A stretch of 64,000 nucleotides of DNA. Source: Candidatus Falkowbacteria bacterium. Lineage in GTDB: Bacteria; Patescibacteriota; Patescibacteriia; UBA11705. Positions 18,890-54,277 of the stretch are shown here, in pieces. Below the pieces are notes generated by a model that did no database searches, had not been told where the DNA came from, and saw only the letters and a program-made list of their open reading frames with translations. Each line of letters begins with the position of its first letter. The stretch's first letter is position 1. The position numbers and the translations under genes are program-made. The DNA lies in assembly GCA_003518055.1 (NCBI GenBank), contig DOZJ01000002.1, positions 299,785 through 363,784 on the forward strand. Direction: 5' to 3'.

Positions 18890-18895
18890 GGTTAA

Positions 18896-28768: not shown

Positions 28769-28819
28769 TAATAATTCGATTTTGAGCCAACCCGATTGAA
28801 GACAGGAAAGGATCGCCAC

Positions 28820-29233
28820 ATGATCGGCTTTCACCTCACCGTGCCCGGTCGCAGTTTGTCTTGGTTGCAGCGCTTTACCGAGCGCAACATGATGCCGCTT
28901 GATGAACTTCAATGGCGGATTCTAGCGCGGCTGATGAGCGGCCGCCATTATTCCTACAACCATGGTAAGGTCGTCGTGTATCCATGGAAAGTTCTCAAAG
29001 AGTATAAGTGTGACCTCGAATCCACGGTCGCTCAGTATGGTTGTATTCCAACGATCGATGTTGCGATGCGGGTGCTTCCCCAGCCGTTTACCGGCCAGCC
29101 GCAAGTGATGCAGCTGGCTTCGGGCGGAGGGGTTCATCGTGATATCAAAGAAGCGGCTAGACAGATTGTTCATAATCATTTGATCGCCAGACTGAGAGAA
29201 AGACATATCCGGTTTGAAGCTTATATCATTTAA
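28820..29233 (+). CDS. Hypothetical protein (137 aa; start trimmed from the ORF-track TTG to ATG 28820)
   Basis: AGGAAAGGA Shine-Dalgarno; monocistronic between a consensus promoter and a terminator; GC about 52%. Confidence 0.5.
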   Translation: MIGFHLTVPGRSLSWLQRFTERNMMPLDELQWRILARLMSGRHYSYNHGKVVVYPWKVLKEYKCDLESTVAQYGCIPTIDVAMRVLPQPFTGQPQVMQLASGGGVHRDIKEAARQIVHNHLIARLRERHIRFEAYII

Positions 29234-39163: not shown

Positions 39164-41917
39164 ATGAGCATTTTTACCAAAATTTTCGGTGATCCAAATG
39201 ACAAAGAAATCCGGTCGCTGCAACCCATTGTGGCGGCGATAAATAGCTTAGAGGCGGAAATTAATCAGCTATCTGACGATGAATTACGAGCCAAAACATC
39301 ATATTTCAAACAGCTGCTTCAATCAGGGAAAACTCTGGATGACATCCTACCCGAGGCTTTTGCCGTTGTTCGGGAAGTGTCAAAACGAACCACCGGCCTG
39401 CGGCATTATGATGTCCAGCTGATTGGCGGCATTATCCTGCATCGCGGTCAAATTACGGAAATGCGCACCGGTGAAGGCAAGACCTTGGTCGCGACGCTCG
39501 CTGTTTACCTCAACGCGCTCGAAGGCAAGGGCGTTCATGTGATTACGGTTAATGATTATTTGGCCAAGCGTGACGCCGTCTGGATGGGACAGGTGTACAA
39601 TTTTCTCGGTTTATCTATCGGCGTGATTCAAGGTGAAATGAAATCATTTTTGTATGATGAATCATTGATAAACTCAGCCAGCGATGACACTCATGACGAA
39701 GTGGCATCATTCAAAGTGGAATCAGCCTATCTTCGCGCTTGCTCTCGCCGTGACGCCTACCACGCCGACATTACTTACGGCACCAACAATGAATTCGGTT
39801 TTGATTATCTTCGCGATAACATGGCTTACAGCCTCAAAGACAAAGTCCAGCGCGATCTGCATTACACGATTATTGATGAAGTGGACTCGATTTTGATTGA
39901 TGAAGCGCGCACACCGCTGATCATCTCTGCTCCGGCCGAGGAGTCAGCCTCTTTATACCAACAATTCGCCGCCATGGTGCCCAAGCTGGCTGAAAATGAA
40001 GATTACAATGTGGATGAAAAAATGCGGGCCGCCACGTTGACTGAAAATGGTTTGAACCGCATGGAAAAAATGCTCGGTCTCGGTAATATATATAATGAAG
40101 GCGGGGTCATGATGGTGCATCATCTGGAACAAGCGTTAAAAGCCCACGCATTATTTAAAAAAGATCGCGATTATGTCATCAAAGATGGTGAAGTGATTAT
40201 CATTGATGAATTTACCGGCCGGTTGATGGTTGGCCGGCGTTATTCAGAAGGGCTGCATCAGGCGATTGAGGCCAAAGAAGGCGTGGAAGTCAAAAAAGAA
40301 AGTCTGACGCTCGCCACCATTACGTTTCAAAATTTATTCCGCATGTATAAAAAGTTATCTGGTATGACCGGTACGGCCGCGACCGAAGCGGAGGAATTCG
40401 CCAAAATTTATAATTTGGAAGTTACTATCATCCCAACCAACAAGCCGGTGGTCCGAGATGATTTGCCGGATCGAGTGTATGCGACGGTCGAAGGCAAGTA
40501 CAAGGCCGTGATCAATGAAATAAAAAAGATTCATGCCACCGGCCAGCCGCTTCTCATCGGGACGGTTTCAATTGAGCAAAATGAGATGTTTGGCCGATTG
40601 CTGCATCAGGCGGGAATTACCCATAATTTGCTGAACGCCAAACAGCACGAGCGCGAAGCGGAGATCATCGCTCAGGCTGGCCGTGCCGGCGCCGTCACGG
40701 TCGCCACCAATATGGCCGGCCGCGGCGTAGATATTATTCTCGGCGGCGCGCCGTTTAACCAAACCGAATATGAAAAGGTCAAAAGCGTTGGCGGCTTGTT
40801 TGTGCTTGGGACTGAGCGGCATGAAGCCCGCCGCATTGATAATCAGCTTCGCGGCCGCTCCGGCCGTCAGGGCGACCCGGGCCGAACCCAGTTTTATTTA
40901 TCCATGGAAGATGATGTGATGCGTATTTTTGGTTCAGACCGCATCAAGAACATGATGCAGTCATTGGGCATTCCCGAGGATGTGCCGATTGAACAAAAAA
41001 TTATTACCAGCTCAATCGAAAAAGCCCAAAAGCGAGTTGAGGGCCACAACTTTGATATCCGCAAACATTTGGTGGAGTATGATGATGTGATGAATAAACA
41101 ACGGGAGTCAATTTATACCCGCCGCGATGAAGTTTTGCGTCTGGCCGAGGAAAAGCCGGCCGAGTTAAAACCGCTGGCATGGAGTATGATTGAAAATGAA
41201 ATTGAACAAGTCGTGTCATTTCATACCGCCCAAGTCCAAAATGGTGATTTTGATCTCAAAGAAATTGTCGAGGTTTCTCGGACCATTTTTCCTGTCCCTG
41301 CCGGATTTGAAACAGACTTGAAAAATTTTGTTGCTCAATCAAAAGGCCGTGAAGAGAACTTTGAACTCAAAAGTGAAATTACAAATTATATATTAAACGC
41401 AGCCAGAAACGCTTACCAAGACTTGGAAACGCGTCTGGCTGAGACCACTAGCGAACCTGAAGTGATGCGCAAGGTGGAAAAGGAAATCATGCTGCGCAGC
41501 ATCGATAATCTTTGGGTTGAACATCTCGAGGCGATTCAGGCGCTGCGTTCGAGTATCGGTCTCCGCGGCTATGCTCAACGCGATCCACTGGTTGAATACA
41601 AACGCGAATCCCGCCATTTGTTTATCCAGCTGGAAAATCTTATCCAGCATCAGATGGTTTACTCGATTTTTAAAGTTGGTTTGGCGCCGGAGATGAAATC
41701 ATCTATTATGCAGGGTGTGAAAAATTATTCCGCCCCGGCCAAGACTGCCGGCGGGATGAAAAATCCCTACGAAACCGAGCAGCGACGTGAATCAACTGCA
41801 AATAAAAAAGCATACGACGCCACCGGCAAAAAAGTCGGACGCAATGATCCTTGTCCCTGCGGCGCGAAAGATGATTCCGGTAATCCGATAAAATTTAAGA
41901 AGTGCCATGGGGCGTAA
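39164..41917 (+). CDS. secA: Preprotein translocase ATPase SecA
   Basis: 917 aa with DEAD-like motifs and a C-terminal zinc-binding CPCGAKD...KKCHG. Confidence 0.95.
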   Translation: MSIFTKIFGDPNDKEIRSLQPIVAAINSLEAEINQLSDDELRAKTSYFKQLLQSGKTLDDILPEAFAVVREVSKRTTGLRHYDVQLIGGIILHRGQITEMRTGEGKTLVATLAVYLNALEGKGVHVITVNDYLAKRDAVWMGQVYNFLGLSIGVIQGEMKSFLYDESLINSASDDTHDEVASFKVESAYLRACSRRDAYHADITYGTNNEFGFDYLRDNMAYSLKDKVQRDLHYTIIDEVDSILIDEARTPLIISAPAEESASLYQQFAAMVPKLAENEDYNVDEKMRAATLTENGLNRMEKMLGLGNIYNEGGVMMVHHLEQALKAHALFKKDRDYVIKDGEVIIIDEFTGRLMVGRRYSEGLHQAIEAKEGVEVKKESLTLATITFQNLFRMYKKLSGMTGTAATEAEEFAKIYNLEVTIIPTNKPVVRDDLPDRVYATVEGKYKAVINEIKKIHATGQPLLIGTVSIEQNEMFGRLLHQAGITHNLLNAKQHEREAEIIAQAGRAGAVTVATNMAGRGVDIILGGAPFNQTEYEKVKSVGGLFVLGTERHEARRIDNQLRGRSGRQGDPGRTQFYLSMEDDVMRIFGSDRIKNMMQSLGIPEDVPIEQKIITSSIEKAQKRVEGHNFDIRKHLVEYDDVMNKQRESIYTRRDEVLRLAEEKPAELKPLAWSMIENEIEQVVSFHTAQVQNGDFDLKEIVEVSRTIFPVPAGFETDLKNFVAQSKGREENFELKSEITNYILNAARNAYQDLETRLAETTSEPEVMRKVEKEIMLRSIDNLWVEHLEAIQALRSSIGLRGYAQRDPLVEYKRESRHLFIQLENLIQHQMVYSIFKVGLAPEMKSSIMQGVKNYSAPAKTAGGMKNPYETEQRRESTANKKAYDATGKKVGRNDPCPCGAKDDSGNPIKFKKCHGA

Positions 41918-41934
41918 TTAACAGCCCGAAGCCC

Positions 41935-41972
41935 GAAGGCGAAGATCGCGATCTTCGCCTTCGATTTATTTT
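41935..41972 (+). terminator. Perfect-palindrome terminator GAAGGCGAAGATCGCGATCTTCGCCTTC
   Basis: Immediately after the secA stop. Confidence 0.65.
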
Positions 41973-42087
41973 ATGAATACCATTGCAATCACGACATTCA
42001 CGATTGTTTTTATTTTGTGCTAAAATATTAACAAATAATATTCATCCTACTACTATAAAAAAATCCGCTGATTTTTCAGCGGTTTTA

Positions 42088-42306
42088 TTATCCCCAGATC
42101 AGTCCGGCGGCCACAGCCTCAACAATAACGCAGCCTAACCACAACACCACATCACGGAAAAATACCGGATGATCAAAATCACATTTGGTGGCGTGTTCAA
42201 TCGGTTCCGCGATGGAACTGTAATAATCATGGAAAAAAATTTTGGCTCCGAGCAGGACGAGTACCAAGGCAAAAACTACGAAGATAATCCAGCCGGTTAC
42301 GTTCAT
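42088..42306 (-). CDS. Small membrane protein (72 aa)
   Basis: Two TM helices. Confidence 0.4.
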   Translation of the reverse strand: MNVTGWIIFVVFALVLVLLGAKIFFHDYYSSIAEPIEHATKCDFDHPVFFRDVVLWLGCVIVEAVAAGLIWG

Positions 42307-42498
42307 TTGGCCACCTCCTATGGGGTTGAGATTCAGTCATGTGATATAACAGCAAAAATTATCACATTGTGTTTCATCTGTCAAATAGGTTATCTTGTTC
42401 ACAAGTTTAGATGTTGTGGGGTTGCAAATAATACGTTTTTTTATTAAAATGAAGGCACATTTTGTTTTTAGTTTAACTAATGACCGCAATTTATCTTT

Positions 42499-44541
42499 AT
42501 GGCAAAGCTGACGGAAAAATTCAAAGTTCGCTTGTGGCTGATTGTAATTCTGGGCGTGGCCGTTTTGGCCGGCGTCTATGATTATCCGCCCATTCTCAAT
42601 CAGGGAATCAACAAGTTTAATCAGGTGTTCAAGACATCAATATCGACTGTAACCAGCCGGCCGTTTATTTTGGGGCTGGATTTACAGGGCGGAACTCATT
42701 TGGTTTACGAAGCTGATACATCGGCCATCGGATCAGGGGAGGAAGGCGCCGCGGTTGACGGTGTCCGCGATGTAATCGAGCGCCGTGTCAATTCTCTCGG
42801 CGTGTCAGAACCCGTGGTTCAAACCAATCAAACCGGCGACAAATGGCGGGTGATTGTTGAGTTGGCCGGGATCCGCGATGTCAATGAAGCCATCAAGGCG
42901 ATCGGTGAGACGCCGCTGCTTGAATTCAAAGAACAAAATGATGCACCGGCTCGTACCCTGACCAAAGAAGAAAAACAAGAGCTTGAAGTCTTCAACAAAA
43001 ACGCCGAAGCCAAAGCCAATATTGTTTTGGACAACGCGCTGGCCGGCGGTGACTTTTCCGCCTTGGCCGCTGCCAACTCAGACGATGTTTTGACCAAAGA
43101 TCAAGGCGGTAATCTTGGTGTTCTGACCGGCGACCAGATTGAATATCAGGCTATATATGAATTAATAACCTCGATGAATCCGACCGAAGCGCAAGTATTG
43201 AATAAACTGGTTGATAATAATGATGGATTTAACATCGTAAAAATAAATGACATCAAAGACGGTGAGCTTCAAGTCAAAGCCAGTCACCTGCTAATTTGTT
43301 TTGACGGTAAAACCGGCTGCAATACCGGCGCGACGCGAGAACAGGCCGAAGGTAAAATCAATGAATTGAAAGCCGGAGCAAACGCTGAAAACTTTGCCGC
43401 TTTGGTTAAATCCAATTCCACCGAACCGGGCGCGAGCGTAAATGCCGGCGATTTGGGTTGGTTTTCCCGCGGCGTGATGGTTCCGGAATTTGACACTGCG
43501 GTTTTTGATATGCCAACCGGCGAAATTTCGAGCGTAATCGAAACCGACTTTGGTTTTCATTTGATTTTCAAAGAAGGGGAGCGCCAAGGCAAAAATTATG
43601 ACGTTTCCCGCATTTTTATTAATACCAAAACCGAAAGAGATATTCTGCCGCCAACCGATCAGTGGAAAAATACCGAGCTGAGCGGCAAACATCTGGAGCG
43701 CGCTTGGGTTGCTTTTGATCCGAGCACCAACGCCCCGCAAGTCAGTCTGCAATTCAACGATGAGGGCGATCAGCTGTTTGCAGATATTACTGGTAGAAAT
43801 GTCGGCAAGCCGGTGGCCATTTTTCTTGACGGCTCAGCGATCAGTATTCCAGTGGTTAATGAAAAAATTACCGGCGGTGAAGCCGTCATATCCGGTTCAT
43901 TTGATTTGGCTGAGGCCCGACTTTTGTCTCAGCGGCTGAACGCCGGCGCCTTGCCCGTGCCGATCGAACTGGTATCTCAGCAAACCGTCGGCGCCACTTT
44001 GGGCCAATCTTCTCTAACCATGAGTCTCAAAGCCGCGTTGATTGGATTTTTATTGGTAGCTCTGTTTATGATTGGGTATTACCGAGTACCCGGTGTTATG
44101 GCGGTGGTTGCCCTGTTATTTTATACGTCTATTCTTCTGTTATTATTTAAATTAATTCCGGTGACATTGACTTTGTCGGGTATTGCCGGGTTTATCTTAT
44201 CAGTCGGTATGGCTGTGGACGCGAATGTTCTTATCTTTGAGCGATTCAAGGAAGAGTTAAAAAGTGGCAAACCGTATGGATCCTCTCTTGAGGAAGGGGC
44301 TAAGCGAGCTTGGCCTTCGATCCGTGATGGCAACGCGACCACGTTGATTACTTGTTTCATCTTGGCTTGGTTTGGTACTAGCAGTATTCAAGGTTTTGCC
44401 ATTACTCTTGGAGTTGGTGTGATGATCAGTATGTTTTCCGCTATCGTGGTTACTCGATCGTTACTCAAAATATTCATCGGAATAAAAGAGAACAATAATA
44501 ATTTATTCTGGTTCGGAGTAAGACGAAATATCGAGAAATAA
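42499..44541 (+). CDS. secD: Protein-export membrane protein SecD with a parvulin-type PPIase domain embedded in the periplasmic P1 head
   Basis: SecD TM1, P1 domain and C-terminal 5-TM core are present. Residues about 250-365 (...ASHLLICFD...GDLGWFSRGVMVPEFDTAVFDM...GFHLIFKEGE) match the PpiC/parvulin fold. Confidence 0.8.
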   Translation: MAKLTEKFKVRLWLIVILGVAVLAGVYDYPPILNQGINKFNQVFKTSISTVTSRPFILGLDLQGGTHLVYEADTSAIGSGEEGAAVDGVRDVIERRVNSLGVSEPVVQTNQTGDKWRVIVELAGIRDVNEAIKAIGETPLLEFKEQNDAPARTLTKEEKQELEVFNKNAEAKANIVLDNALAGGDFSALAAANSDDVLTKDQGGNLGVLTGDQIEYQAIYELITSMNPTEAQVLNKLVDNNDGFNIVKINDIKDGELQVKASHLLICFDGKTGCNTGATREQAEGKINELKAGANAENFAALVKSNSTEPGASVNAGDLGWFSRGVMVPEFDTAVFDMPTGEISSVIETDFGFHLIFKEGERQGKNYDVSRIFINTKTERDILPPTDQWKNTELSGKHLERAWVAFDPSTNAPQVSLQFNDEGDQLFADITGRNVGKPVAIFLDGSAISIPVVNEKITGGEAVISGSFDLAEARLLSQRLNAGALPVPIELVSQQTVGATLGQSSLTMSLKAALIGFLLVALFMIGYYRVPGVMAVVALLFYTSILLLLFKLIPVTLTLSGIAGFILSVGMAVDANVLIFERFKEELKSGKPYGSSLEEGAKRAWPSIRDGNATTLITCFILAWFGTSSIQGFAITLGVGVMISMFSAIVVTRSLLKIFIGIKENNNNLFWFGVRRNIEK

Positions 44542-44590
44542 CGAGACGGTTTATTATCACCCACTTCACTTTTATCACATTTAAAACTCT

Positions 44591-45517
44591 ATGAAAAAAA
44601 CATTTGACATTATCAGCAAGAAAACAATCTGGCTGTCAATCTCTGGTTTCCTAGTTGTTACCAGCCTGGTTTTTTTGGCGGTCTGGGGTTTGAAGCCGGG
44701 ACTCGATTTTACCGGTGGCAGTTTGCTTGAGGTCCGGTTCACGCAAAATGCCCTACCCGACACCTCGACCTTGAGGCAACATATGAATAGCATGAATTTG
44801 GGCGGCGAAGTTGTTGTCCAACCAACCGACAATGATGGTTATATTATCCGTTATCAAGACATCAGTGAAGATACGCATCAAAAAATCGTAACCTCTCTAA
44901 GAGAGGAATTTCCGGCTGAAGACGAGGGTCAAACCAATTTGGAAGAAGTCAGATTTGAATCAATCGGTCCATCCATTGGAAAAGAACTTCGAACGCAAAC
45001 CGCATATGCCATATCCATTACCCTGATCGCCATTATTGCTTATATTGCTTGGGCTTTCCGCAAAGTTTCTTGGCCAATCAAATCATGGAAATACGGCGTA
45101 ATCGCGGTGGTGGCGTTGTTCCACGATATTATTATAACCATGGGTCTGTTTTCATTTCTTGGTCATTTTTATAATGTCGATGTCGGGTTACCGTTCGTGG
45201 CGGCTCTGTTGACTATTCTTGGCTACTCGGTAAATGACACAATTGTGATGTTTGATCGAATCAGAGAAAACATCGGCCGGCTTAGCCACTCTGATTTTCT
45301 TGGTTTGGTCAATCGATCAATCAATGAAACCTTGTCTCGTTCTATTAATACGACATTCACGACGCTCCTAGCTCTGATCGCCATCTTCTTTTGGGGGGGC
45401 GTCACGATCAAATATTTTGCCCTCGCGATGATTTGCGGTATTTTCTTTGGTTCTTACTCCTCGATTTTTGTCGCCAGTCCGCTTCTGGTAATCTGGGGAA
45501 AATTTCGGCAGAAGTAA
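44591..45517 (+). CDS. secF: Protein-export membrane protein SecF
   Basis: 308 aa, SecF topology, adjacent to secD. Confidence 0.9.
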   Translation: MKKTFDIISKKTIWLSISGFLVVTSLVFLAVWGLKPGLDFTGGSLLEVRFTQNALPDTSTLRQHMNSMNLGGEVVVQPTDNDGYIIRYQDISEDTHQKIVTSLREEFPAEDEGQTNLEEVRFESIGPSIGKELRTQTAYAISITLIAIIAYIAWAFRKVSWPIKSWKYGVIAVVALFHDIIITMGLFSFLGHFYNVDVGLPFVAALLTILGYSVNDTIVMFDRIRENIGRLSHSDFLGLVNRSINETLSRSINTTFTTLLALIAIFFWGGVTIKYFALAMICGIFFGSYSSIFVASPLLVIWGKFRQK

Positions 45518-45532
45518 GTTAAAGACAAATCC

Positions 45533-45562
45533 AAAAAACGAGACGTCGACGTCTCGTTTTTT
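45533..45562. terminator. Bidirectional perfect-palindrome terminator AAAAAACGAGACGTCGACGTCTCGTTTTTT
   Basis: Flanked by A6 and T6; marks the left boundary of the GC-rich island. Confidence 0.7.
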
Positions 45563-45652
45563 GTTTATCTCTTTGACTAGAGTTACGGGGGATCTTCCTG
45601 CCAACAGCCGTGCTGTTGGCAGGATGGAGGCGGGAGGAGGATAACCGCAATC

Positions 45653-45681
45653 AAAAAACACTGTCTGCTTGCAGATCAGTG
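45653..45681 (-). terminator. Module-1 terminator (minus strand): CACTGATCTGCAAGCAGACAGTG + T6
   Basis: Read on the minus strand, immediately 3' of the membrane-protein A stop codon. Confidence 0.6.
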
Positions 45682-45748
45682 TCTTCTTCACGAAAGTTTT
45701 CGATGAAGTTTGTGCCTTAGGTTTGAGGCGGGGGAACGGGGGCTGTGG

Positions 45749-46432
45749 GCGTCAGGTTCGGATGGCTCGACTCGGCGCCTTGACGAGCAGCGAGATGCCG
45801 GTCGCCTTCCAGAAGAGCCAGTTGATCCCGTAGAGGCTGGTGTAGACCACCGCGATCGCGAAGGCCAGCCCACAGCCGATCACGACCGTGTTCAGTAGGT
45901 GCTTCGGATCGAGGACGGTGCCGGTGATCAGGCCGTTTGCCAGCGAGTTGGCCAAGCCGGCGAGCATGATCAGGTTGAAACGTTCGCGCAGGGTCAGGTC
46001 GCGATCCCGCTCGCAGAAAACGAGCATCAGGACCAACAGCTGAGCGAATGCGAAGAGGAGCAGATAGAACTCGAGACTCGCCGCCGCATGCAGATTTGCG
46101 TACTGAATTGGGGCGAGCATCGCGGCCTCGAACATGACCCACATCCTGGCGAACGCTGGGTCGCAGCCGTACGCGCGGAAGTTGTTGGCGACGTAGACCG
46201 CGCCCTGGAGCAGCATGTAGATCGTGAAGAACACCATGATGGTCTGGAACAGCGGTGACTCGATTTGGAGCGTGGGGAGGTAGGTCGCTGCCCACTCGCT
46301 CATGGACGCGTGGTCCATGAACGGGGGCATCTCGACGATGAACAACCGAAACGCCAGGCTGGCGAGAAACGCCAGCGCGATGTTCACGTACGCCCACCGA
46401 TCCACCTGGAAGAACTTGCGACTTTCGTCCAT
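45749..46432 (-). CDS. GC-rich 6-TM membrane protein A (226 aa from the second ATG), paralogue of 47253..47948
   Basis: GGAGGG Shine-Dalgarno 5 nt upstream of ATG 46432; six hydrophobic helices; shares motifs with protein B (EMPPF.../ELPVYF..., LLQGAVYVANNF/LMFGAVYYANHF). Confidence 0.65.
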
Positions 46433-46500
46433 GATTCCCTCCATGTCAGCGCCTTAGCGCGTGTTCAGTGTACAGTTGACGTTGGACGTTTAGTCCGCGG

Positions 46501-46632
46501 TTACCGACTGCGCCACGGCTGCCCCTGCTCGATGGCCTTGGTTTCGGCTTCGCTCAGGGCGTCGCGGTGCATGTCCATCAGGATGGAGGCGACCACGAAC
46601 AGGTTTCGAACGGCGGCGGCGATGCGCTTCAT
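46501..46632 (-). CDS. 43-aa peptide MKRIAAAVRNLFVVASILMDMHRDALSEAETKAIEQGQPWRSR (not in the ORF track)
   Basis: GGAGA Shine-Dalgarno 8 nt upstream; lies between the module-1 promoter and membrane protein A; GC-rich codons. Confidence 0.45.
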   Translation of the reverse strand: MKRIAAAVRNLFVVASILMDMHRDALSEAETKAIEQGQPWRSR

Positions 46633-46674
46633 TTAGAGTATCTCCTGTCTGGTTGTCGAAGATCTTAATCAACC

Positions 46675-46703
46675 ATTATATCACATTTTTCATAAAAAGT
46701 CAA
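46675..46703 (-). promoter_or_regulatory. Module-1 promoter, perfect TTGACT-N17-TATAAT (minus strand)
   Basis: The reverse complement reads TTGACTTTTTATGAAAAATGTGATATAAT. Confidence 0.7.
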
Positions 46704-46735
46704 TAGTAAGTGGTTTTTTTACTCTTATTTATAAC

Positions 46736-46769
46736 AAAAAAGCCACCTGCTTTGATGCGAGGTTGGCTT
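46736..46769 (-). terminator. Module-2 terminator (minus strand): AAGCCAACCTCGCATCAAAGCAGGTGGCTTTTTT
   Basis: Hairpin + T6 immediately 3' of the lipoprotein gene and just upstream of the module-1 promoter. Confidence 0.6.
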
Positions 46770-46802
46770 GGTCACTAGCGATGTAGTGTTGAGTACCTAT
46801 GT

Positions 46803-47240
46803 TCAGTTCGCGTAGTCGTCGTACTTCGTCAGCCGATCCCACCGACTATAGACAGGGGAGATCAGGTCGCTCGAGAGTGACAGGTTGTGCTCCCGCTCGG
46901 CTCGGTCGAACAGCTGGTGCAGTCGGACTGACACCAGCTGCAGCTCGCCGCTCTGGCGATATTCCGAGCTGTACTTGGGGTTCGGGGAGAGCACATCGTC
47001 GTAGGCGATTCGGAGATCTCGCCACTCCTGCCAGTCTCGGACTTCCGTGTGGATGTCCTCGGTCTCGACCTGACGAATCAGGTCGTTAAGGTTGGTGACG
47101 CAGTCGTCGTAGGCCAGCAGGTACTGCTGAGCCTTGGTCAGACTCCCGCAGCCCGACCCGCCGGTGATGGCGGCCAAGAGCAGGAGCGCGAAGGCGATGA
47201 TGATGGCGATGGATCCGAGCGATGACTTGGGCTTGTTCAC
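46803..47240 (-). CDS. GC-rich putative lipoprotein (145 aa, GTG start)
   Basis: AAGGAGA Shine-Dalgarno 6 nt upstream of GTG; signal peptide ending LAAITGGSGC; begins 12 nt after the protein B stop. Confidence 0.55.
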   Translation of the reverse strand: MNKPKSSLGSIAIIIAFALLLLAAITGGSGCGSLTKAQQYLLAYDDCVTNLNDLIRQVETEDIHTEVRDWQEWRDLRIAYDDVLSPNPKYSSEYRQSGELQLVSVRLHQLFDRAEREHNLSLSSDLISPVYSRWDRLTKYDDYAN

Positions 47241-47252
47241 GCGTTGTCTCCT

Positions 47253-47948
47253 TCAGGCCGCAGCCGTCTTGACCGGGCGCTTGATGAACCAGCATACGAC
47301 GCGCTTGGTGTAGATGATCAGAAGCGACGCAGCCGAGCTGGCCGCGAAGCACACAACCACCGTGGCTGCGCCCCAGGCCAGGAAATTCCAGGCCGCGTTC
47401 GGGCCGGAGATCAGGAAGGCCGCGAAAGCGCCGAGCGCCACGTAGCCGGTGATCAGACTGGCCATGAAGCCGAGCGTCTGCCGCCAGCTGGCGCGAAGCG
47501 TCTTGAAGTGATTGGCGTAGTACACTGCGCCAAACATGAGTGTGTGGAGAGCGGTGAAGAAGATGAAGAGGCTCGTCACCGGCGTCATCGCACTCACAAC
47601 GCAGCAGCCGACCGCAGTGGCAAAGCCGAACACCCCGAGAATCAACGAAAGCCACCACACGCTGTTTTCCCGGTTTTCCCGGACGTCGCGCAGGTGCTGG
47701 ATGCTCATGATGATGAAGGCCGCGACCGAGAGCCAGAGCACGCCTTGGAGCAGGTGGGCTCCGCCGAGGTCGGTCACCATGACCGACATCTGTCCCGACT
47801 GCACCGTCCACCAGTTCTCGATGGTGGGATAGATGTGCTCGGTCGCCGGGTGGTTCACGAAGTACACCGGCAGCTCCAGCCACCCTGATATGATGGCGCC
47901 GAAACCGAAGATGACGTAGAGCAGGATCACGGAGTCGGGTTTCTTCAT
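47253..47948 (-). CDS. GC-rich 6-TM membrane protein B (231 aa), paralogue of protein A
   Basis: GGGAGA Shine-Dalgarno; six TM helices; internal duplication of the GAVY.AN.F motif. Confidence 0.65.
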   Translation of the reverse strand: MKKPDSVILLYVIFGFGAIISGWLELPVYFVNHPATEHIYPTIENWWTVQSGQMSVMVTDLGGAHLLQGVLWLSVAAFIIMSIQHLRDVRENRENSVWWLSLILGVFGFATAVGCCVVSAMTPVTSLFIFFTALHTLMFGAVYYANHFKTLRASWRQTLGFMASLITGYVALGAFAAFLISGPNAAWNFLAWGAATVVVCFAASSAASLLIIYTKRVVCWFIKRPVKTAAA

Positions 47949-48026
47949 TGACTTTCTCCCATGCGCTATTCTCGCGTCATGTTGCTATGTTTCCGTGGTG
48001 AACGTTGTTAAAGATCTTAATCGACA

Positions 48027-48055
48027 ATTATATCATATTTTAATAAAAAAGTCAA
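48027..48055 (-). promoter_or_regulatory. Module-2 promoter, perfect TTGACT-N17-TATAAT (minus strand)
   Basis: The reverse complement reads TTGACTTTTTTATTAAAATATGATATAAT; the surrounding 50 bp are about 85% identical to the module-1 promoter region. Confidence 0.7.
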
Positions 48056-48319
48056 CAATTGTCTTATTATTTAACTTAAATTAGATTAAAAATCAATGTG
48101 AACAATTGACGGTTCCAGATATTTTTGGCCTAATTCTTGACTGAAGCTTCTTGTTAGTCTAAAATCACTTGACATATATCTTGAATAGTATAAAATATTA
48201 TATAAGCTTATCGTCTTGACAAAGTTTTATAAAGATGTTATACTTTAATATAATTAAATTTATTTATCTAAGCTGATATATAACTAATATAAGTTTGCTT
48301 GTCGGCTTTTCATGATTTT

Positions 48320-49435
48320 ATGACTCACATGAGCAACAACGTAGATTTTGAAAAGTTCTTCCTCTCATTATTGGAAGAGCTGGCTGCGCGTGAACAAGAA
48401 GTACTCAAAAAACGCTATCAGCTGACAGGTGATGTGGCGCAAAAAAACACCTTGAAGCAGATTGGCGATGAGTATGGAATTACACGCGAACGCGTCCGCC
48501 AAATTGAAAAAGAGGCCATCAATAAATTGGTCAAGTTGGCCAAGGCCGATAATTACCTCACCGAGCTTCAGGCGATCAAAGATTCTTTGGTCCGCTATCT
48601 CGAGCGCCGGGGTGGTTTGGCGCGCGAAGACGAATTGGTGTCAGATCATTTGTATAATGATTACAAATTGACCACTCTGCATCAAAACGCCTATCTGTTT
48701 GTGCTGGAGCATATGATTGATGAAGTGGACCAACACGAAGCCGGTGATGATTATCACTCATTTTGGATTTTGACCGCAGTTGACCGCCAGAGCATTTTTG
48801 CCTTGGTCAATGAAGTGATCAATCACTTGGTCAAAAAAAGCGCGGTTCAGGATGAATCATCTTTGCTTTCAGCCATCAAGAATGAAATTCTCCCCAAAGT
48901 TGAATTGGCTCATTTTGATCCTTTGACCGGCAAACACACTGACGTTACGGTTGAAGATTTTATCCGCACCTATTTGTCCATCACCAAGAAGGTGGAAAAA
49001 AATATTCTCGACAACTGGGGTTTGGCTGAGTGGGCTGATGTGAAACCAAAGAAATTGTCAGACAAAATCCATTTGGTATTCAAAAAACATGAAAAACCTC
49101 TGCACTTCCGTGACGTGGCTGAGTTGATCAACACCGCGAATTTCGACAAAAAGAATATTTGCGCTGCCACGGTTCACAATGAACTCATCGCTAACGAAGG
49201 CTATGTCCTTATCGGCCGCGGCATCTACGCCAAGAAAGATTGGGGATATACTCCGGGCACTGTGACTGATATCATCAGCCAGATTTTGAAAGACAACTCA
49301 CAGCCGATGACCAAAGAAGACATTTACGACGCGGTTTTAAAACAACGTCAAGTCAATCCTTCAACCATTTATCTGTCACTCATCAACAAAAACAAGTTCA
49401 ATAAATTATCCAACGGTTTGTTTGAACTCAAATAA
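48320..49435 (+). CDS. DNA-binding protein with a sigma-70 region-4-like HTH (hypothetical regulator)
   Basis: LKQIGDEYGITRERVRQIEKEAINKL resembles sigma region 4.2. Upstream is an extremely AT-rich segment with three CTTGAC(A/T) boxes at about 30-45 bp spacing. Confidence 0.55.
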   Translation: MTHMSNNVDFEKFFLSLLEELAAREQEVLKKRYQLTGDVAQKNTLKQIGDEYGITRERVRQIEKEAINKLVKLAKADNYLTELQAIKDSLVRYLERRGGLAREDELVSDHLYNDYKLTTLHQNAYLFVLEHMIDEVDQHEAGDDYHSFWILTAVDRQSIFALVNEVINHLVKKSAVQDESSLLSAIKNEILPKVELAHFDPLTGKHTDVTVEDFIRTYLSITKKVEKNILDNWGLAEWADVKPKKLSDKIHLVFKKHEKPLHFRDVAELINTANFDKKNICAATVHNELIANEGYVLIGRGIYAKKDWGYTPGTVTDIISQILKDNSQPMTKEDIYDAVLKQRQVNPSTIYLSLINKNKFNKLSNGLFELK

Positions 49436-49565
49436 ACAATCCGTATATCATATTAACAAAGACCGAGGCTCAACCTCGGTTTTTGTTTTCTCCTTAGTTT
49501 GAGCGGCTGTTATCCCGATTTTCTTGTTGGCGCTGTGAAAACGTGGTATAATTTTATTGAAATTT

Positions 49566-51227
49566 ATGGATATCTCAATCCTCGGTTACCAGCTGACATT
49601 TGATTTTGATTGGATTTACGTGCTGGGAACAAAACCATTTTATGAATTACTTTGGTTCTTCATGGTCAATGGAGGCTGGCTTTTGATTCTGTTGGTGTGT
49701 ATATGGGGTGGATTTGAAATTTTTATTTTCAACAACCAGAATAAATTTGCCGCCAAGCAGAAATATGTTTATCTCGCGCTCGATATCCCGCGCCAGAACC
49801 TGCAGTCGCCTCAAGCGGTGGAAAATGTTTTCTCCACTTTAGCCGGGGCACACATGCCGCTTGAATGGGAGGAAAAAATGTTTGACGGCGCTTTCCAGCT
49901 CGGTTTTAGTTTTGAGATCGTCAGCTTTGACGGTTTTATTCAATACGTGGTCCGGACGCCCGTCCAATGGCGCGATTTGGTGGAATCGGCGGTTTACTCT
50001 CAATATCCGGACGCGGAGATTACACAGATAGAGGATTACACCAAAGAATTAAGTATCACGTTTCCTAGTGACGAGTACGATTTGTGGGGATCGGATTTGG
50101 TTTTGTATAACAAACCGTATTTTCCCATTCGTTCCTACAAAACATTTGAAAGTAGTCTTAATCGCGATATCAAGGATCCATTGACCGCCTTGCTCGAGGT
50201 GATGAATAAGCTTGGGCCCGGCGAGCAGTTTTGGTTCCAGATTTTATTGTATCCGACTGACAATAAGTGGACCAAGGACGGTATCAACGCCATCAAGAAA
50301 ATGGTCGGCCAAAAAGTTGAAGAGAAAAAAAATTGGATGGATGTGGTTATGGATGAACCGCTTAAATGGTTTAATGAGCTTGGCACTCAAGCGCTTGGAG
50401 CGATGGGCTTTGGTGACGACGCCGCAGAAAAAAAACAGGAAGACAGAATGATTTTCTTGCCGCCGATCGAGAAAATTCAAGCCGAGGGGATAGCCGAAAA
50501 GGTGTCTAAAATCGGTTTTGAGTGCAAATTACGAATTGTTTACGTTGCGCGACATGAAGTTTTCAACAAAGGCAAAGGCGTCTCCGGTACTTTTGGCGCC
50601 ATCAAACAATTTTCTGATCTGCACTTGAATGGCTTTAAGCCGGACAAGAATAAAACTCATGCGCGCTGGCCGTGGTTCAAGGAATACCGCAAACAGGAGA
50701 AACAAAACAAAGTTTTTCGAGCGTATAAAAAACGCGATTCCCAGACCGCCAGCCCCAAATATATTTTAAACATTGAAGAGTTGGCCACGCTTTGGCATTT
50801 CCCGTATTTTGAAATCAAAGGCCCGATCGTCAAGCGGATCGAGAGCAAACGCGTTATGTCTCCGGTTGGTCTGCCGATTGAACCCGGACTGCCGATCAAG
50901 GGTGGCGAGAAAAAAACATCAAGCGCGAGGAGCGCGGCTCAATCCAAAGAGCCAGTGGTGGATTATGACGACAATTATTTCGAGAATCGTTTTGCCGTTG
51001 ATAAAACCGGCGAGGCTGATCGTCAACGCAAACAAGAACTGTTGACCAAAGCAACATCCAATAAAGCTAATCAACCGGCCACCCAGAGTAAAGACGTCGA
51101 AGATTCTTCTTTCTTCTTTGACGGCCACGAGACTTCAGTCTCAGCATCCGATGATGAAGATGATGATAATGAACAGCAGCCGCCGCGAACTGGCGGAGGC
51201 AATGTGCCGACAAATTTACCAGTTTAG
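49566..51227 (+). CDS. Membrane protein (2 N-terminal TM helices, 553 aa), hypothetical
   Basis: Extended -10 TGGTATAAT upstream, near-leaderless; co-oriented with the ATPase gene. Confidence 0.5.
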   Translation: MDISILGYQLTFDFDWIYVLGTKPFYELLWFFMVNGGWLLILLVCIWGGFEIFIFNNQNKFAAKQKYVYLALDIPRQNLQSPQAVENVFSTLAGAHMPLEWEEKMFDGAFQLGFSFEIVSFDGFIQYVVRTPVQWRDLVESAVYSQYPDAEITQIEDYTKELSITFPSDEYDLWGSDLVLYNKPYFPIRSYKTFESSLNRDIKDPLTALLEVMNKLGPGEQFWFQILLYPTDNKWTKDGINAIKKMVGQKVEEKKNWMDVVMDEPLKWFNELGTQALGAMGFGDDAAEKKQEDRMIFLPPIEKIQAEGIAEKVSKIGFECKLRIVYVARHEVFNKGKGVSGTFGAIKQFSDLHLNGFKPDKNKTHARWPWFKEYRKQEKQNKVFRAYKKRDSQTASPKYILNIEELATLWHFPYFEIKGPIVKRIESKRVMSPVGLPIEPGLPIKGGEKKTSSARSAAQSKEPVVDYDDNYFENRFAVDKTGEADRQRKQELLTKATSNKANQPATQSKDVEDSSFFFDGHETSVSASDDEDDDNEQQPPRTGGGNVPTNLPV

Positions 51228-51355
51228 TTCTTTTGACCTGAATCAAGCCGTCTGTTTTGTCTTGACCCGGCTATATTAGTTTCACCAAGTGGTCACGTCC
51301 TCCAATAATTACATTTATTTGCTATTCAAACGTTACTTTACCTTCTTAATTTGCT

Positions 51356-53581
51356 ATGCCTACCAACAATCCTAACGATGACATCACTTACTTTGCCAAG
51401 ACCGATTTTCGCGGTCAAGGCGTTAAGTTTGGGATTCGGCGCGATGACCGCCGCCGCCACATGTACATCATCGGTAAAACCGGTATGGGCAAGTCGGTTT
51501 TGATTGAAAATTTGGTTTATAGCGACATTATTAACGGCAATGGCGTGGCTCTGATCGATCCCCACGGCGATTCAGTTGAACAAATTATCAAATCCATACC
51601 GGCCGAACGTATCAATGATGTGGTTTATATCAATCCGGCTGATCTTGATTTCCCGGTCGCTTTTAATGTTTTGGAAAAGGTTGAAGCCAAATATCGCCAC
51701 CTCATCGCCTCGGGCATTGTCGGGGTGTTCAAAAAACTCTGGGCTGACAGCTGGGGCCCACGTTTGGAGTATTTACTGCGCAACGCGATTTTGGCCCTGC
51801 TTGATTATCCCGACAGCACGCTGCTCGGTGTTAACCGGCTTTTTATTGACAAAGATTACCGCAAAAAGGTGGTAGCAAAAGTCAAAGATCCGGTCGTCAA
51901 AGCTTTCTGGGAGGATGAATTTTCCAAATACAATCAGTCGTTTATGGTTGAGGCGATCGCGCCTATTCAAAACAAGGTCGGACAGTTTTTGTCGACATCG
52001 TTGGTCCGCAATCTGGTCGGTCAGGTGAAATCAACCATTGATATGCGCAAGATTATGGATGATGGCAAGATTCTACTGGTTAATTTGTCCAAAGGTAGAA
52101 TCGGTGAAGACTCTTCCGCCATGATCGGCAATATGATCGTTACCAAACTGCAGCTGGCCGCTATGAGCCGAGTGGATATGCCGGAAAGTGAGCGCCGCGA
52201 TTTTTATTTATATGTTGATGAGTTCCAAAACTTCGCTACCGAATCATTCGCCAACATTTTATCCGAAGCTCGAAAATACAAATTAAATTTGATTGTCGGT
52301 CATCAATACATCGAACAGCTTGACGAGACGGTTTCCGCCGCGATTTTTGGTAACGTCGGCACATTCGTCGTTTTCAGAGTCGGCGCCGCCGATGCCGAGG
52401 TGCTGGTCAAGGAGTTTGAACCGTTTTTCCTCGAAGAAGACCTGGTCAACTTACCCAAATATCATGTTTATTTGAAATTAATGATCAATGGTGTAGCCTC
52501 TGATCCGTTTAGCGCCGCCACCTTGCCGCCGCATTCGGTTGAAACCGGCACAGAGGAAACCGTGATTGCCGTTTCTCGTGAACGCTATGGCCGCCCGCGC
52601 GAGATGGTTGAAGACAAGATTGCCCGCTGGAGCGGGATTGAAACCGAAGAAATGCTGGAAAAACTGGAAAGAGATCAATTAGATAAAAAAATAAAAAAAG
52701 TTCAAGCCAAAGGCATTGATTTTCTAGCCAGTCTGGATGGTTATTTGCATCAAGAAGACGAGGTTGAAACCAATGATGACGGGACTCCGAGCGTCGAAGA
52801 GGAATACGTGGTGAATTGTAATTCTTGCGGCGAAAAAACCAAAATTACTTTCAAGCCGGATGGTGTTAGACCTGTATATTGTAAAGATTGTTTGAGCGAA
52901 TATCGGCGCCAGCAATCAACGGCGGAAAATCTCAGCCAAGGCATTAGCCCGGTGGCAAAAGAACGTGATGATGAAGATGACCGGCCTTCGAAGTGGCCTA
53001 AAAAGAAAAAATTTATTGATTATGATCGCGCGCGCAAGGTTCAAGATTCGTTAAAACGGCCGGTTACGCCGCCTCCAACTCCGGCGCCGAGACCAAGTTT
53101 TCAAACCGCACCAAAACCAACCGTTAGTAGCACTACAACGGTCAATTCAAAACCAACAACAACAATAACCACAACAACAACGACAACAACACAGCGTCCA
53201 TCAAGCAGTGCAGTTCAGCCGTCCTCTCAATCTCGACCGGCCCAGCCATCAAAACCGGCAGCGGTTGTTAATCAAGCTGCAGGCACTCCACGCCCCGCGA
53301 AGCCGCCAACATCCCCGGCCGCTATGACCAAACCAATCACACCGCCACGGCCCAAAGTTGAACCCAAACCGCTCAGTCAAGGTGAAATCGTCGCCAAAGA
53401 CACGCCGGAAGAAATTTCCTTAGCCGCGGCCTTATCCCAAGGCGTGCAGACATTCTCCGGTAAAAAACGGAAAGATTTAAAATTGGATGATGATATATTT
53501 GCCAATTATCAAAAAATGATCAGCGGCGGCGAGGCTGACGACGACGAGGCTTCGGCTGAAGGTTTGAAAGTAGCCGAGTAA
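51356..53581 (+). CDS. TrwB/VirD4/TraD-like P-loop ATPase with a C-terminal CxxC...CxxC zinc ribbon and a Thr/Pro-rich disordered tail
   Basis: YIIGKTGMGKSVLIENL...ALIDPHGD (Walker A and coupling-protein-like block); Walker B LYVDEFQNF; zinc ribbon CNSCGEKTKITFKPDGVRPVYCKDC; the tail is encoded partly by an (ACA)n tract. Confidence 0.6.
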   Translation: MPTNNPNDDITYFAKTDFRGQGVKFGIRRDDRRRHMYIIGKTGMGKSVLIENLVYSDIINGNGVALIDPHGDSVEQIIKSIPAERINDVVYINPADLDFPVAFNVLEKVEAKYRHLIASGIVGVFKKLWADSWGPRLEYLLRNAILALLDYPDSTLLGVNRLFIDKDYRKKVVAKVKDPVVKAFWEDEFSKYNQSFMVEAIAPIQNKVGQFLSTSLVRNLVGQVKSTIDMRKIMDDGKILLVNLSKGRIGEDSSAMIGNMIVTKLQLAAMSRVDMPESERRDFYLYVDEFQNFATESFANILSEARKYKLNLIVGHQYIEQLDETVSAAIFGNVGTFVVFRVGAADAEVLVKEFEPFFLEEDLVNLPKYHVYLKLMINGVASDPFSAATLPPHSVETGTEETVIAVSRERYGRPREMVEDKIARWSGIETEEMLEKLERDQLDKKIKKVQAKGIDFLASLDGYLHQEDEVETNDDGTPSVEEEYVVNCNSCGEKTKITFKPDGVRPVYCKDCLSEYRRQQSTAENLSQGISPVAKERDDEDDRPSKWPKKKKFIDYDRARKVQDSLKRPVTPPPTPAPRPSFQTAPKPTVSSTTTVNSKPTTTITTTTTTTTQRPSSSAVQPSSQSRPAQPSKPAAVVNQAAGTPRPAKPPTSPAAMTKPITPPRPKVEPKPLSQGEIVAKDTPEEISLAAALSQGVQTFSGKKRKDLKLDDDIFANYQKMISGGEADDDEASAEGLKVAE

Positions 53582-53590
53582 TTCAATGAT

Positions 53591-54277
53591 ATGACCGAAT
53601 GGAGACTCAACAAATATTTGGCCGAGTCCGGAGTGGCGTCTCGGCGGGCAGCCGAGCGCTTTATTTTGGCCGGACAGGTCAAAGTTAATGCCAAGGTTGT
53701 CACCGAATTGGCGACCAAAATCAAACCATCTGACCGAGTTGAGGTGAACAATAAATTAGTTCAACCCGTAGAGACCAAAGTCTGCTTCATGTTGAACAAA
53801 CCGGTTGGCTACGTTTCCACCGCCAAAGTGAGCCGAGAAACCGGCGAATCGGTTTTGAGCTTGATCGATTATTCCGGTCGCCTGTACCCGGTCGGCCGAC
53901 TGGATCGTGACTCCAGCGGTTTGCTGCTTATCACCAATGACGGTGACTTGGCTTTGCGCTTGACGCATCCGCGTTATGAAAAAGACAAGGAATATGAAGT
54001 TACGGTGGATAAAAAAATCACTCCCGACTTGATTGCCGGCTTCAACCGCGGTGTGCGGTTAGCCGATGGCCAAACTCTGCCGGCCAAATTTATCGCCGCC
54101 GGTCCCAAACGGTTTACCGTCATTTTAAAAGAAGGCAAGAACCGCCAGATTCGGCGAGTGTGCCAGAGGTTCAATTTTGCAGTCGTGAAACTGCATCGTA
54201 CGCGCATCGGAAAATTAAAACTTGGTAACCTGAAGATTGGCAGATATAACCGAATTAACGTGGAGGACATAAAATAA
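53591..54277 (+). CDS. RsuA/RluB-family pseudouridine synthase with an S4 domain
   Basis: GRLDRDSSGLLLITNDG catalytic motif. Confidence 0.85.
   Translation: MTEWRLNKYLAESGVASRRAAERFILAGQVKVNAKVVTELATKIKPSDRVEVNNKLVQPVETKVCFMLNKPVGYVSTAKVSRETGESVLSLIDYSGRLYPVGRLDRDSSGLLLITNDGDLALRLTHPRYEKDKEYEVTVDKKITPDLIAGFNRGVRLADGQTLPAKFIAAGPKRFTVILKEGKNRQIRRVCQRFNFAVVKLHRTRIGKLKLGNLKIGRYNRINVEDIK

Follow-up and report, generated by a model that had tools for sequence, protein, structure and literature searches.

A variable islet of GC-rich envelope-protein genes between secF and a sigma-like gene in Candidatus Falkowbacteria

Results

The 64-kb stretch of DNA analyzed here (the window) belongs to a metagenome-assembled genome (MAG) of Candidatus Falkowbacteria bacterium, an uncultured groundwater member of the Candidate Phyla Radiation (CPR; Patescibacteria), and the element of interest is an island that fills the 2.78-kb spacer between secF and a gene for a 378-amino acid (aa) sigma-like protein. 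The island carries four minus-strand open reading frames (ORFs) of 231, 145, 43 and 226 aa (Table 1), and the corresponding NCBI entries are the hypothetical proteins DF272_02660/65/70. A preliminary description of this DNA had divided the genes into two autonomous units, and this division holds: one unit (module 2, behind promoter P2) encodes the 231-aa membrane protein and the 145-aa lipoprotein-like protein, and the other (module 1, behind promoter P1) encodes the 43-aa peptide and the 226-aa membrane protein. The genes are spaced by 12 nt in the first pair and by 68 nt in the second, from which the members of each pair are taken to be operon partners.

Both promoters described earlier were recovered as perfect TTGACT-17-TATAAT sites, each with a TG-extended -10 element, and the whole window has only three further perfect consensus promoters (five in total, vs. 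0.11 expected). They lie within near-identical segments of 52 nt (83% identity), and a joint 45-nt promoter pattern matched the window twice and none of 100 shuffled sequences. Shine-Dalgarno sequences were present 5–9 nt before all four start codons. A simple consensus terminator scan missed the terminators of both modules owing to bulges, and folding against shuffled sequences was used instead; by this measure the hairpin and T6 tract reported to close each unit do fold better than shuffles (Table 1).

The composition of the island is sharply set off from that of its surroundings. When the GC profile was recomputed in 300-nt steps, it was far from uniform, with values of 0.60–0.64 at 45700–46600 and 46900–47950, a dip to 0.46–0.50 around 46450–46900, and a drop to 0.28–0.30 at 47950–48400, compared with 0.42–0.49 in the flanks (0.42–0.47 in secD/secF). 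Overall, island GC is 0.61–0.64, vs. 0.44–0.47 nearby. The difference is greatest at third codon positions (GC3; GC1 and GC2 denote the first and second), where the island genes reach 0.84–0.87, in keeping with the G- and C-ending codons noted before, while the 43 other window ORFs of at least 120 aa range from 0.29 to 0.64 and are typically about 0.50. Peak GC3 over 50 codons was 0.92–0.96 in the island genes and did not exceed 0.76 in any of these 43 ORFs, so that this survey revealed no further GC-rich gene in the 64 kb. GC2 in the four genes is just 0.39–0.45 (the GC1/GC2/GC3 pattern is ~0.55/0.40/0.86), and this strong periodicity fixes the reading frames chosen in the preliminary description. 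The periodicity of the 43-aa ORF matches that of the larger genes, and independent assemblies also call this gene. A 265-aa ORF at 47086–47883 was rejected as a gene, since it is out of frame, has a GC1 of 0.87, and is a by-product typical of GC-rich DNA.

Table 1. Genes and expression signals of the island, in window positions (UTR, untranslated region; TM, transmembrane; z, folding energy relative to shuffled sequences).
Feature	Position	Strand	Remarks
231-aa polytopic protein, ~6 TM, ORFan	47253-47948	-	NCBI HCC23060.1, hypothetical; six hydropathy peaks; GGGAGA-8-ATG; GC3 0.86
145-aa lipoprotein-like protein, GTG start	46803-47240	-	Signal-anchor helix, invariant Gly-Cys, then four-helix bundle (predicted); AGGAGA-6-GTG; GC3 0.84
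43-aa peptide ORF, first gene after P1	46501-46632	-	AGGAGA-9-ATG; GC1/GC2/GC3 0.64/0.43/0.86
226-aa polytopic protein, ~6 TM, ORFan family	45752-46432	-	NCBI HCC23058.1, hypothetical; GGAGGG-5-ATG; GC3 0.87 (also as 230 aa, 45752-46444)
Promoter P2 and start of 5'UTR	48004-48055	-	TTGACT-17-TATAAT at 48027-48055
Promoter P1 and start of 5'UTR	46652-46703	-	TTGACT-17-TATAAT at 46675-46703
Module-2 intrinsic terminator	46736-46769	-	Hairpin + U6; z = -3.3; 0/200 shuffles fold as well
Module-1 intrinsic terminator	45653-45682	-	Hairpin + U6; z = -3.0; nearly identical hairpin in L009
Conserved cassette 3'UTR	45683-45751	-	Aligns clearly with 3'UTR of L009
Perfect 12-13 bp GC-rich hairpin without U-run	45597-45623	-	-28.6 kcal/mol; z = -5.3
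Palindromic bidirectional secF terminator	45532-45563	.	14-bp stem, T-runs on both strands; z = -5.95
Divergent control region, 22% GC	48056-48298	.	Shared with sigma-like gene; plus-strand promoter-like sites at 48137-48254

The regulatory DNA of the island had been described as host-like and AT-rich, which is true of the promoters (22–23% GC) and not of the transcribed non-coding parts, since the UTRs and inter-cistronic spacers have 49% GC, vs. 35% in short intergenic DNA of the host. The codon shift in the cargo genes extends to both C- and G-ending codons (AAG, 94% in cargo vs. 26% in host; CAG, 90% vs. 46%). The cargo also retains the CPR-typical arginine codon CGA (8/33, 2/8 and 3/15). 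CGA is rare in typical high-GC bacteria, and its retention gives a weak hint that the cargo originated in CPR bacteria.

The island is not peculiar to one assembly. At least 10 public contigs contain the gene for an identical 231-aa protein, and eight of these were retrieved (L001–L008): three MEGAHIT contigs from ENA groundwater data (PRJNA292723), a 435-kb SPAdes contig from ENA, a 109-kb contig from JGI, and three Logan contigs. All eight were 100.000% identical to the window over as much as 12.7 kb, both junctions included, with not one single-nucleotide polymorphism (SNP). The absence of SNPs from 41253–53948 across several projects and assemblers suggests a single clonal population that was sampled repeatedly, or closely linked samples. 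The three Logan contigs break precisely at the secF palindrome (45533/45534). Neither blastn nor tblastn revealed a plasmid or phage record similar to the island, 72,556 plasmid records being included in the comparison.

Relatives of the locus were identified in GTDB genomes and JGI metagenomes, using SecF and the 378-aa Sigma70_r4 protein as anchors. In the latter, described earlier as a regulator, the Sigma70_r4 domain was found, whereas a HARE-HTH match remained below threshold. The flanking genes are conserved among relatives (aa identities of 57–80% for the sigma-like protein and 54–69% for SecF), the nearest genome being Candidatus Falkowbacteria CG10_big_fil_rev_8_21_14_0_10_39_11 (L009), with a SecF 69% identical and a sigma-like protein 80% identical. 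The empty site that the preliminary description had proposed to search for exists in three relatives (L010, L047 and L052), whose spacers of ~180–230 bp contain the secF terminator and the sigma promoter block only. Elsewhere the spacer measures 0.4 kb without a credible gene (L053), 1.1 kb with one 218-aa membrane-anchored protein (L048), 2.75 kb with peptides and lipoprotein-like proteins (L009/L045), or 4.7 kb with a 45-aa TM peptide plus other cargo (L046). Within the Candidatus Falkowbacteria clade, the site between secF and the sigma-like gene represents a hotspot of variation, bounded on the left by the secF terminator palindrome and on the right by the divergent control region, a block of which ('tgtcaag...tatactatt') is kept both in L009 and in the empty-site genome L010.

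Within the same hotspot, L046 also carries, at 2402–5275 (+) of its sequence, a gene for a 957-aa secreted or surface protein and, at 5469–6182 (-), a gene for a basic protein of 237 aa, with a second consensus-like promoter upstream of it. The 957-aa gene has host-like composition, and the site therefore accepts cargo that is not GC-rich as well. On the other side of the control region, 48299–53581 (+) of the window contains the sigma-like gene (378 aa) followed by a gene encoding a DUF8128 protein of 556 aa and one encoding a 741-aa VirD4/TraG-like coupling ATPase that carries a treble-clef zinc finger. Transcription of the variable cassettes diverges from that of these three genes. Synteny of the first two was seen in every relative examined (L009, L010, L046 and L047), and the VirD4-like gene was checked in this genome only.

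Occupied sites share more than their position. The TTGACT-17-(TG)TATAAT promoter and a 5'UTR precede the cargo twice in the window and also in L009, L046 and L057, the last a 970-bp contig. From the sigma side, L009 presents the promoter, a 5'UTR, and ORFs for a hydrophobic peptide (27 aa), a first lipoprotein-like protein (153 aa), a second peptide (49 aa) and a second lipoprotein-like protein (147 aa). Its 3'UTR and terminator clearly align with those of module 1 in the window, even though the genes immediately upstream of the aligned 3'UTRs are unrelated, the L009 gene encoding a lipoprotein-like protein and that of the window a polytopic membrane protein. The L009 island is present in at least eight independent assemblies. 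L046 has the same promoter type, the 45-aa TM peptide, and a 3'UTR that is only weakly recognizable (mean column identity 53% in a five-sequence alignment). On L057, a protein related to the 226-aa protein (P0005) has the same promoter and 5'UTR upstream, and a 26-aa peptide and terminator downstream. Judged by these alignments and predicted signals, a cassette scaffold consisting of a consensus promoter, a 5'UTR, GC3-rich cargo and a terminator recurs in four lineages. Each cassette seen has at least one hydrophobic peptide ORF of 26–49 aa adjoining larger envelope proteins; homology among these peptides could not be established, since they are too short and too low in complexity. In the window, one copy of the duplicated 52-nt promoter segment lies on either side of module 2, and this unit (cargo, terminator and promoter copy) may have been added by recombination inside the promoter/5'UTR.

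As the preliminary description had stated, none of the four proteins can be assigned to a family. The 231-aa protein had no relatives among 5.8 billion word-indexed proteins, or in IMG/VR, the PDB, or phage and plasmid collections, and a TMEM128 match (17.8 bits vs. a cutoff of 23.9) was disregarded as sub-threshold. For the 226-aa protein, a start at the second ATG (46432) is backed by the alignment with P0005, which is its sole relative among 1.84e9 representative proteins (47% identity, E = 9e-58). The two proteins keep the motifs SMSEWA, GAVYV, VFCERDR, NSLANGL and KATGISL, and the 226-aa protein matched nothing in Pfam, NCBIfam or the PDB. Hydropathy and predicted helices give ~6 TM segments for both polytopic proteins. 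They had been described as paralogs, and this did not stand, since the BLASTP alignment was limited to 24 residues around GAVY.AN.F (E = 0.001), which occupy non-equivalent positions in the two proteins, and hhalign returned a probability of 4%.

The 145-aa protein belongs to a small family. Its hydrophobic h-region spans residues 8–26, and it matches the two GC-rich lipoprotein-like proteins of L009 over the full length with E = 9e-16 and 2e-8, or 9e-9 and 7e-6 when the signal peptide is left out. There was no further member in 5.8 billion proteins: the word-indexed search with the 145-aa sequence returned nothing but the protein itself, and a profile of the family returned only the four input proteins. 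Lipidation of the 145-aa protein at its Gly-Cys is plausible, with a lipobox that is atypical at position -3. Matches of the family's model to known folds (Avd, Rop and PMEI) represent generic helical bundles and were not taken as functional leads. An AT-rich 122-aa lipoprotein-like protein of L009 (P0004), considered as an 'ameliorated' member of the family, was rejected because its homology was not significant once the signal peptide was removed.

The high GC3 of the cargo was seen in each of the four lineages. It is 0.84–0.87 in the window (host ~0.50), 0.69–0.78 in L009 (host ~0.36), 0.70 in the 45 codons available from L046 (host 0.23–0.28) and 0.81 in L057 (flanks of 38–45% GC), so that cargo exceeds host by 0.35–0.45 in the three lineages where the host can be measured. 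When the gene for the 226-aa protein was compared with its L057 ortholog, there were 100, 58 and 111 differences at the first, second and third codon positions, and 44 of 103 identical residues were encoded by different codons, with GC3 above 0.8 on both sides. Synonymous sites in this pair look nearly saturated, and a single ancient import should by now have ameliorated. This suggests that the high GC3 either was maintained in situ or was brought into each lineage anew, and recently, from a GC-rich pool where the families had diverged. Searches for such a source (1.84e9 representatives and 5.8e9 proteins) revealed no cargo homolog in a GC-rich context, and only relatives in CPR contexts. There were also no relatives on viral, phage or plasmid sequences in blastn and tblastn searches and in IMG/VR protein-family scans, for which the alignment of the lipoprotein-like family was too divergent.

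Discussion

The anatomy and authenticity of the island, the variability of its site, the conserved scaffold and the persistence of its composition are in part familiar, since variable accessory islets of deviating composition are a known kind of locus, here with genes annotated merely as hypothetical. Less usual are the conserved expression frame and a GC anomaly that is restricted to one locus and appears to have persisted in diverged CPR lineages, with no detectable donor. In the literature searched, we found no description of such a GC-anomalous conserved dock.

With modest confidence, we favor the interpretation that the locus is a native, moron-like expression dock for fast-evolving envelope proteins, whose GC-richness has been maintained over a long time rather than freshly imported. 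Such a dock would have a near-consensus sigma-70 promoter and short 5'UTR at one end, a conserved 3'UTR and intrinsic terminator at the other, and interchangeable cargo between them. In this genome the dock would have been duplicated, with the 52-nt promoter repeat marking the joint, and two units would operate autonomously, one leading from P2 through the genes for the 231-aa and 145-aa proteins, the other from P1 through those for the 43-aa and 226-aa proteins. Judging from their signals, both units would be expressed constitutively and at high levels, and their products are predicted to be inserted in or anchored on the cytoplasmic membrane, and to act at the cell surface. By analogy, these envelope products most likely remodel or guard the cell surface, either by blocking the entry of phage or foreign DNA or through contact with partner cells, and a protective or contact role is favored because the architecture matches the definition of a moron (PMC3594210).

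By definition, a phage moron has a promoter and terminator of its own and deviates in GC content, and many morons encode membrane exclusion proteins (PMC3594210). Like them, the island is an extra transcription unit, or pair of units, between two conserved genes, absent from the same position in relatives; it has its own TG-extended promoter before each module, its own factor-independent terminators, and a GC content well away from that of its neighbors. Moron cargo is often a small inner-membrane protein or lipoprotein, as in HK97 gp15, SieA, Cor and Bor, and the cargo here is alike. Unlike a phage moron, the island lies in a chromosomal secA-secDF / sigma-like-DUF8128-VirD4-like neighborhood whose compared genes are syntenic across relatives, its scaffold is conserved across species while the cargo changes, and its GC deviation is extreme and persists over deep divergence. 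PHROG matches were lacking, and nothing similar was found in phage or viral collections; the locus is outside any prophage, and the likeness to morons is not a claim of membership.

Other comparisons are also instructive. As with genomic islets at recombination hotspots, the same site is empty or differently filled, composition deviates, and the cargo consists of ORFan envelope proteins. The island differs from them in having no integrase, tRNA, direct repeat or mobility gene, in its conserved internal regulatory frame, and in a compositional anomaly that does not look like a decaying signal. It shares compositional deviation and patchy presence with horizontally acquired genomic islands, whereas neither a donor lineage nor outside homologs were found. 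The cargo also recalls integron cassettes in being interchangeable, mostly ORFan, located at one site and expressed from a resident promoter, although here each unit has its own promoter and terminator; there was no integrase within ±6 kb, and the repeat search, in which formal attC covariance models were not run, gave no attC-like inverted repeats. Superinfection-exclusion proteins such as Ltp of TP-J34, Llp of T5 and Sie are small, constitutively produced lipoproteins or membrane proteins with helical ectodomains, fast-evolving and non-enzymatic. The cargo is comparable in consisting of small, fast-evolving lipoprotein-like and membrane proteins without enzymatic motifs, presumably constitutive and with predicted helical ectodomains, but it has no sequence or specific fold similarity to them, and only generic four-helix-bundle matches were obtained.

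The GC bias of the dock might be kept up by a local process, either GC-biased gene conversion (gBGC) at a recombination hotspot or selection on mRNA; alternatively, it might reflect repeated exchange with an unsampled GC-rich gene pool associated with CPR bacteria. The present data do not discriminate among gBGC, mRNA selection and an unsampled reservoir. Recombining bacterial genes have a higher GC3 (Lassalle et al., 2015, PMC4450053), and GC3 in the island is likewise raised at a recombination-prone locus, independent of the optimal codon, with G- and C-ending codons both rising. We tentatively raise a bolder possibility, namely, that a dock beside the sigma-like gene acquires and swaps envelope genes while coding GC3 is actively held, over long evolutionary periods, 0.35–0.45 above that of the genome by a locus-specific process. 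Such a process could be extreme gBGC at a hotspot of transformation or recombination, or selection favoring membrane-protein mRNAs that are rich in GC, resistant to nucleases or translated slowly. In that case the locus would exemplify a new type of compositional compartment, stably maintained within a bacterial genome, rather than the trace of a foreign source.

Several observations weigh against a long-maintained native dock. The evidence base is small, comprising four lineages, of which L057 is a 970-bp contig without a known host and L046 contributes a GC3 value based on just 45 codons. The promoter core is a generic strong consensus, carried by 39 unrelated IMG/VR viral contigs that lack GC-rich cargo, and part of the 'scaffold' similarity could be convergence; for this reason the 39 matches were not accepted as relatives of the cassettes. 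The combined shift to C- and G-ending codons resembles that of a genuine high-GC genome, which makes a GC-rich donor plausible. An increase of 0.35 to 0.45 in GC3 is far above the effects of gBGC reported for bacteria (PMC4450053), and gBGC would be expected to raise promoter GC as well, which is only 22–23%. The manner of cargo exchange is also at issue, since no mobility genes, repeats or att sites explain swapping: the window contains no tRNA gene, no recombinase domain was detected among the neighbors, and there were no convincing flanking repeats. As to function, the absence of any significant match to an island protein in Pfam, NCBIfam, PHROGs and PADLOC gives no support (for the PADLOC defense models, no window protein matched at E <= 0.1), the AlphaFold2 model of the 226-aa protein, built from a two-sequence alignment, was unusable (pLDDT 44), and the lipoprotein-like family, with its invariant Gly-Cys, has G, N, S or T at position -3, where a lipobox is expected to have L, V or I.

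The main competitor of a long-maintained dock is recent horizontal gene transfer (HGT), which the preliminary description had proposed in the form of re-promoterized foreign cargo, and which would place genes from a high-GC bacterium, for instance a host or neighbor at ~63–65% GC, still unameliorated, behind resident promoters. The foreign composition is real, with the global shift to G- and C-ending codons and the raised GC of transcribed non-coding DNA, the site is empty in three relatives, and we also counted in favor of transfer a report that groundwater Patescibacteria commonly undergo HGT and carry genomic islands (PMC12455944). Against transfer stands the failure to find a donor, or any homolog in a GC-rich context; the sole relative of the 226-aa protein among the 1.84e9 representatives is preceded by the same AT-rich promoter, none was found for the 231-aa protein, and those of the lipoprotein-like family are all from CPR bacteria. 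Moreover, raised GC3 recurs at the same locus in genomes whose SecF is only 61–69% identical, and persists across orthologs of 47% identity, the 64 kb hold no other GC-rich gene, and CGA codons are retained in the cargo. The preliminary description had named a native occurrence of the same design in related CPR genomes as the observation that would count against it, and essentially this was found, in four diverged lineages. Recent HGT therefore appears possible but doubtful. The resemblance to toxin- or bacteriocin-immunity cassettes, which the preliminary description had raised as speculation, would make the 43-aa peptide the toxin and the polytopic membrane protein or the lipoprotein the immunity factor (or, similarly, the parts of a type I toxin-antitoxin system), and has in its favor the hydrophobic peptide of 26–49 aa in every cassette seen and the hypervariability of the locus, which is like that of polymorphic toxin loci. 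However, no match was obtained in Pfam, NCBIfam, PADLOC or PHROG, the 43-aa sequence has no visible double-glycine leader, there are no genes nearby for a processing or export ABC transporter or peptidase, module 2 has no small peptide, and the small peptides are not demonstrably homologous, so that we consider this proposal improbable.

GC-rich RNA genes are normal in AT-rich genomes, and the GC-rich stretches might be structured non-coding RNAs instead of protein genes; GC-rich non-coding regions do follow perfect consensus promoters at other places in the window. This is very unlikely, given the three-base periodicity in all four ORFs, the well-spaced Shine-Dalgarno sequence before each, protein-level conservation that spares second positions (100/58/111), coherent TM and signal-peptide features, and the lack of an Rfam family for the island genes. 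A chimeric assembly or binning artefact, in which GC-rich reads were joined into a CPR contig, would explain the sharp compositional steps at 45.6 kb and 47.95 kb and the ends of three Logan contigs at the palindrome 45533/45534. Nevertheless, the same junctions occur in MEGAHIT, SPAdes, JGI and Logan assemblies of different runs, in contigs as long as 435 kb, AT-rich host-type promoters and terminators are interleaved among the GC-rich genes, and the same design occupies the same site in another species (L009), again in at least eight assemblies; for practical purposes an artefact can be dismissed. An engineered or synthetic insertion, suggested by the textbook promoter, Shine-Dalgarno and terminator parts and the duplicated promoter segment, is just as hard to credit. 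The DNA comes from environmental groundwater metagenomes, no plasmid or vector record is similar, the ORFs are ORFans and not markers, other uncultured CPR genomes have diverged natural homologs of the promoter, UTRs and cargo, with homologous cassettes at the same site in relatives, and native RNA candidates elsewhere in the 64 kb have perfect promoters of this type too. The island is an authentic natural locus for variable, predicted surface proteins, neither artefact nor engineered.

Compositional anomalies are routinely taken as a sign of recent HGT or, in MAGs, of contamination. If the locus is indeed a long-maintained native dock, it would urge caution in GC-based decontamination and island calling in CPR MAGs, and would offer a natural system in which GC is held far from genomic equilibrium, by gBGC or by mRNA selection. 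It would also reveal highly expressed, fast-evolving surface proteins in uncultured CPR bacteria, which would be candidates for roles in attachment to hosts or exclusion of phage, the aspects of CPR biology that are least understood, and its promoter and terminator parts would be ready-made strong expression elements for CPR genetics.

Additional features of the window

Between the cassette terminator and the secF terminator, a spacer of 60% GC contains the perfect hairpin at 45597–45623 (CCTGCCAACAGC-ACG-GCTGTTGGCAGG), which is absent from the aligned region of L009, and may be a relic of an earlier cassette end. The only Rfam hit on the island was a chance miRNA-like match to the secF terminator palindrome. 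A GCGC-loop-GCGC hairpin that recurs in several cassette 5'UTRs was rejected as an RNA element because it folded no better than shuffles (z = -0.1 and -0.7).

A type V CRISPR-Cas locus occupies 157–5470 (+), with an ORF containing RuvC_1 and Cpf1 PI-like domains (157–2313), possibly part of a longer cas12 gene, followed by Cas1 (2755–3798) and Cas2 (3800–4081). The array (4259–5470) has 20 repeats of 36 nt (GTCTAATATCAATATTCAATTTCTACTTTCGTAGAT) and 19 spacers of 25–27 nt. None of the 19 spacers matched the island, there were no self-targets, and the fetched loci gave nothing beyond chance 14-mers; the spacers, which are host-like in composition (mean GC 44.5%), were not accepted as a record of a GC-rich mobilome.

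Two of the remaining three perfect consensus promoters lie upstream of GC-rich candidate non-coding RNAs, and one lies upstream of a gene of host composition. This gene follows the fifth perfect promoter (TTGACA-17-TATAAT, 28740–28768; region 28740–29233, +) and is a 145-aa ORF with no Pfam match and a GC3 of 0.56; this host-like value indicates that a strong native promoter alone is not tied to high GC3. At 18861–19830 (+), a perfect TTGACA-17-TATAAT promoter (18861–18889) is followed by ~930 nt of 60–63% GC without a credible ORF, which contain an internal 17-nt repeat (GGGCAGAAAGCGCATGA, at 19219 and 19693) and end in a hairpin and T-run near 19795–19825. The predicted fold of this stretch (-389 kcal/mol, z = -7.7 vs. 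shuffles) makes it a candidate for a large structured non-coding RNA, and Rfam gave no family at gathering score or E <= 1. Similarly, at 6290–6540 (+), a perfect TTGACT-17-TATAAT promoter (6290–6318) precedes ~200 nt of GC-rich sequence, judged non-coding and without an Rfam match, that end in a GC hairpin and T8 (~6515–6535). This stretch is a candidate small RNA, and lies directly upstream of a 51-aa Cys-rich ORF (6592–6747).

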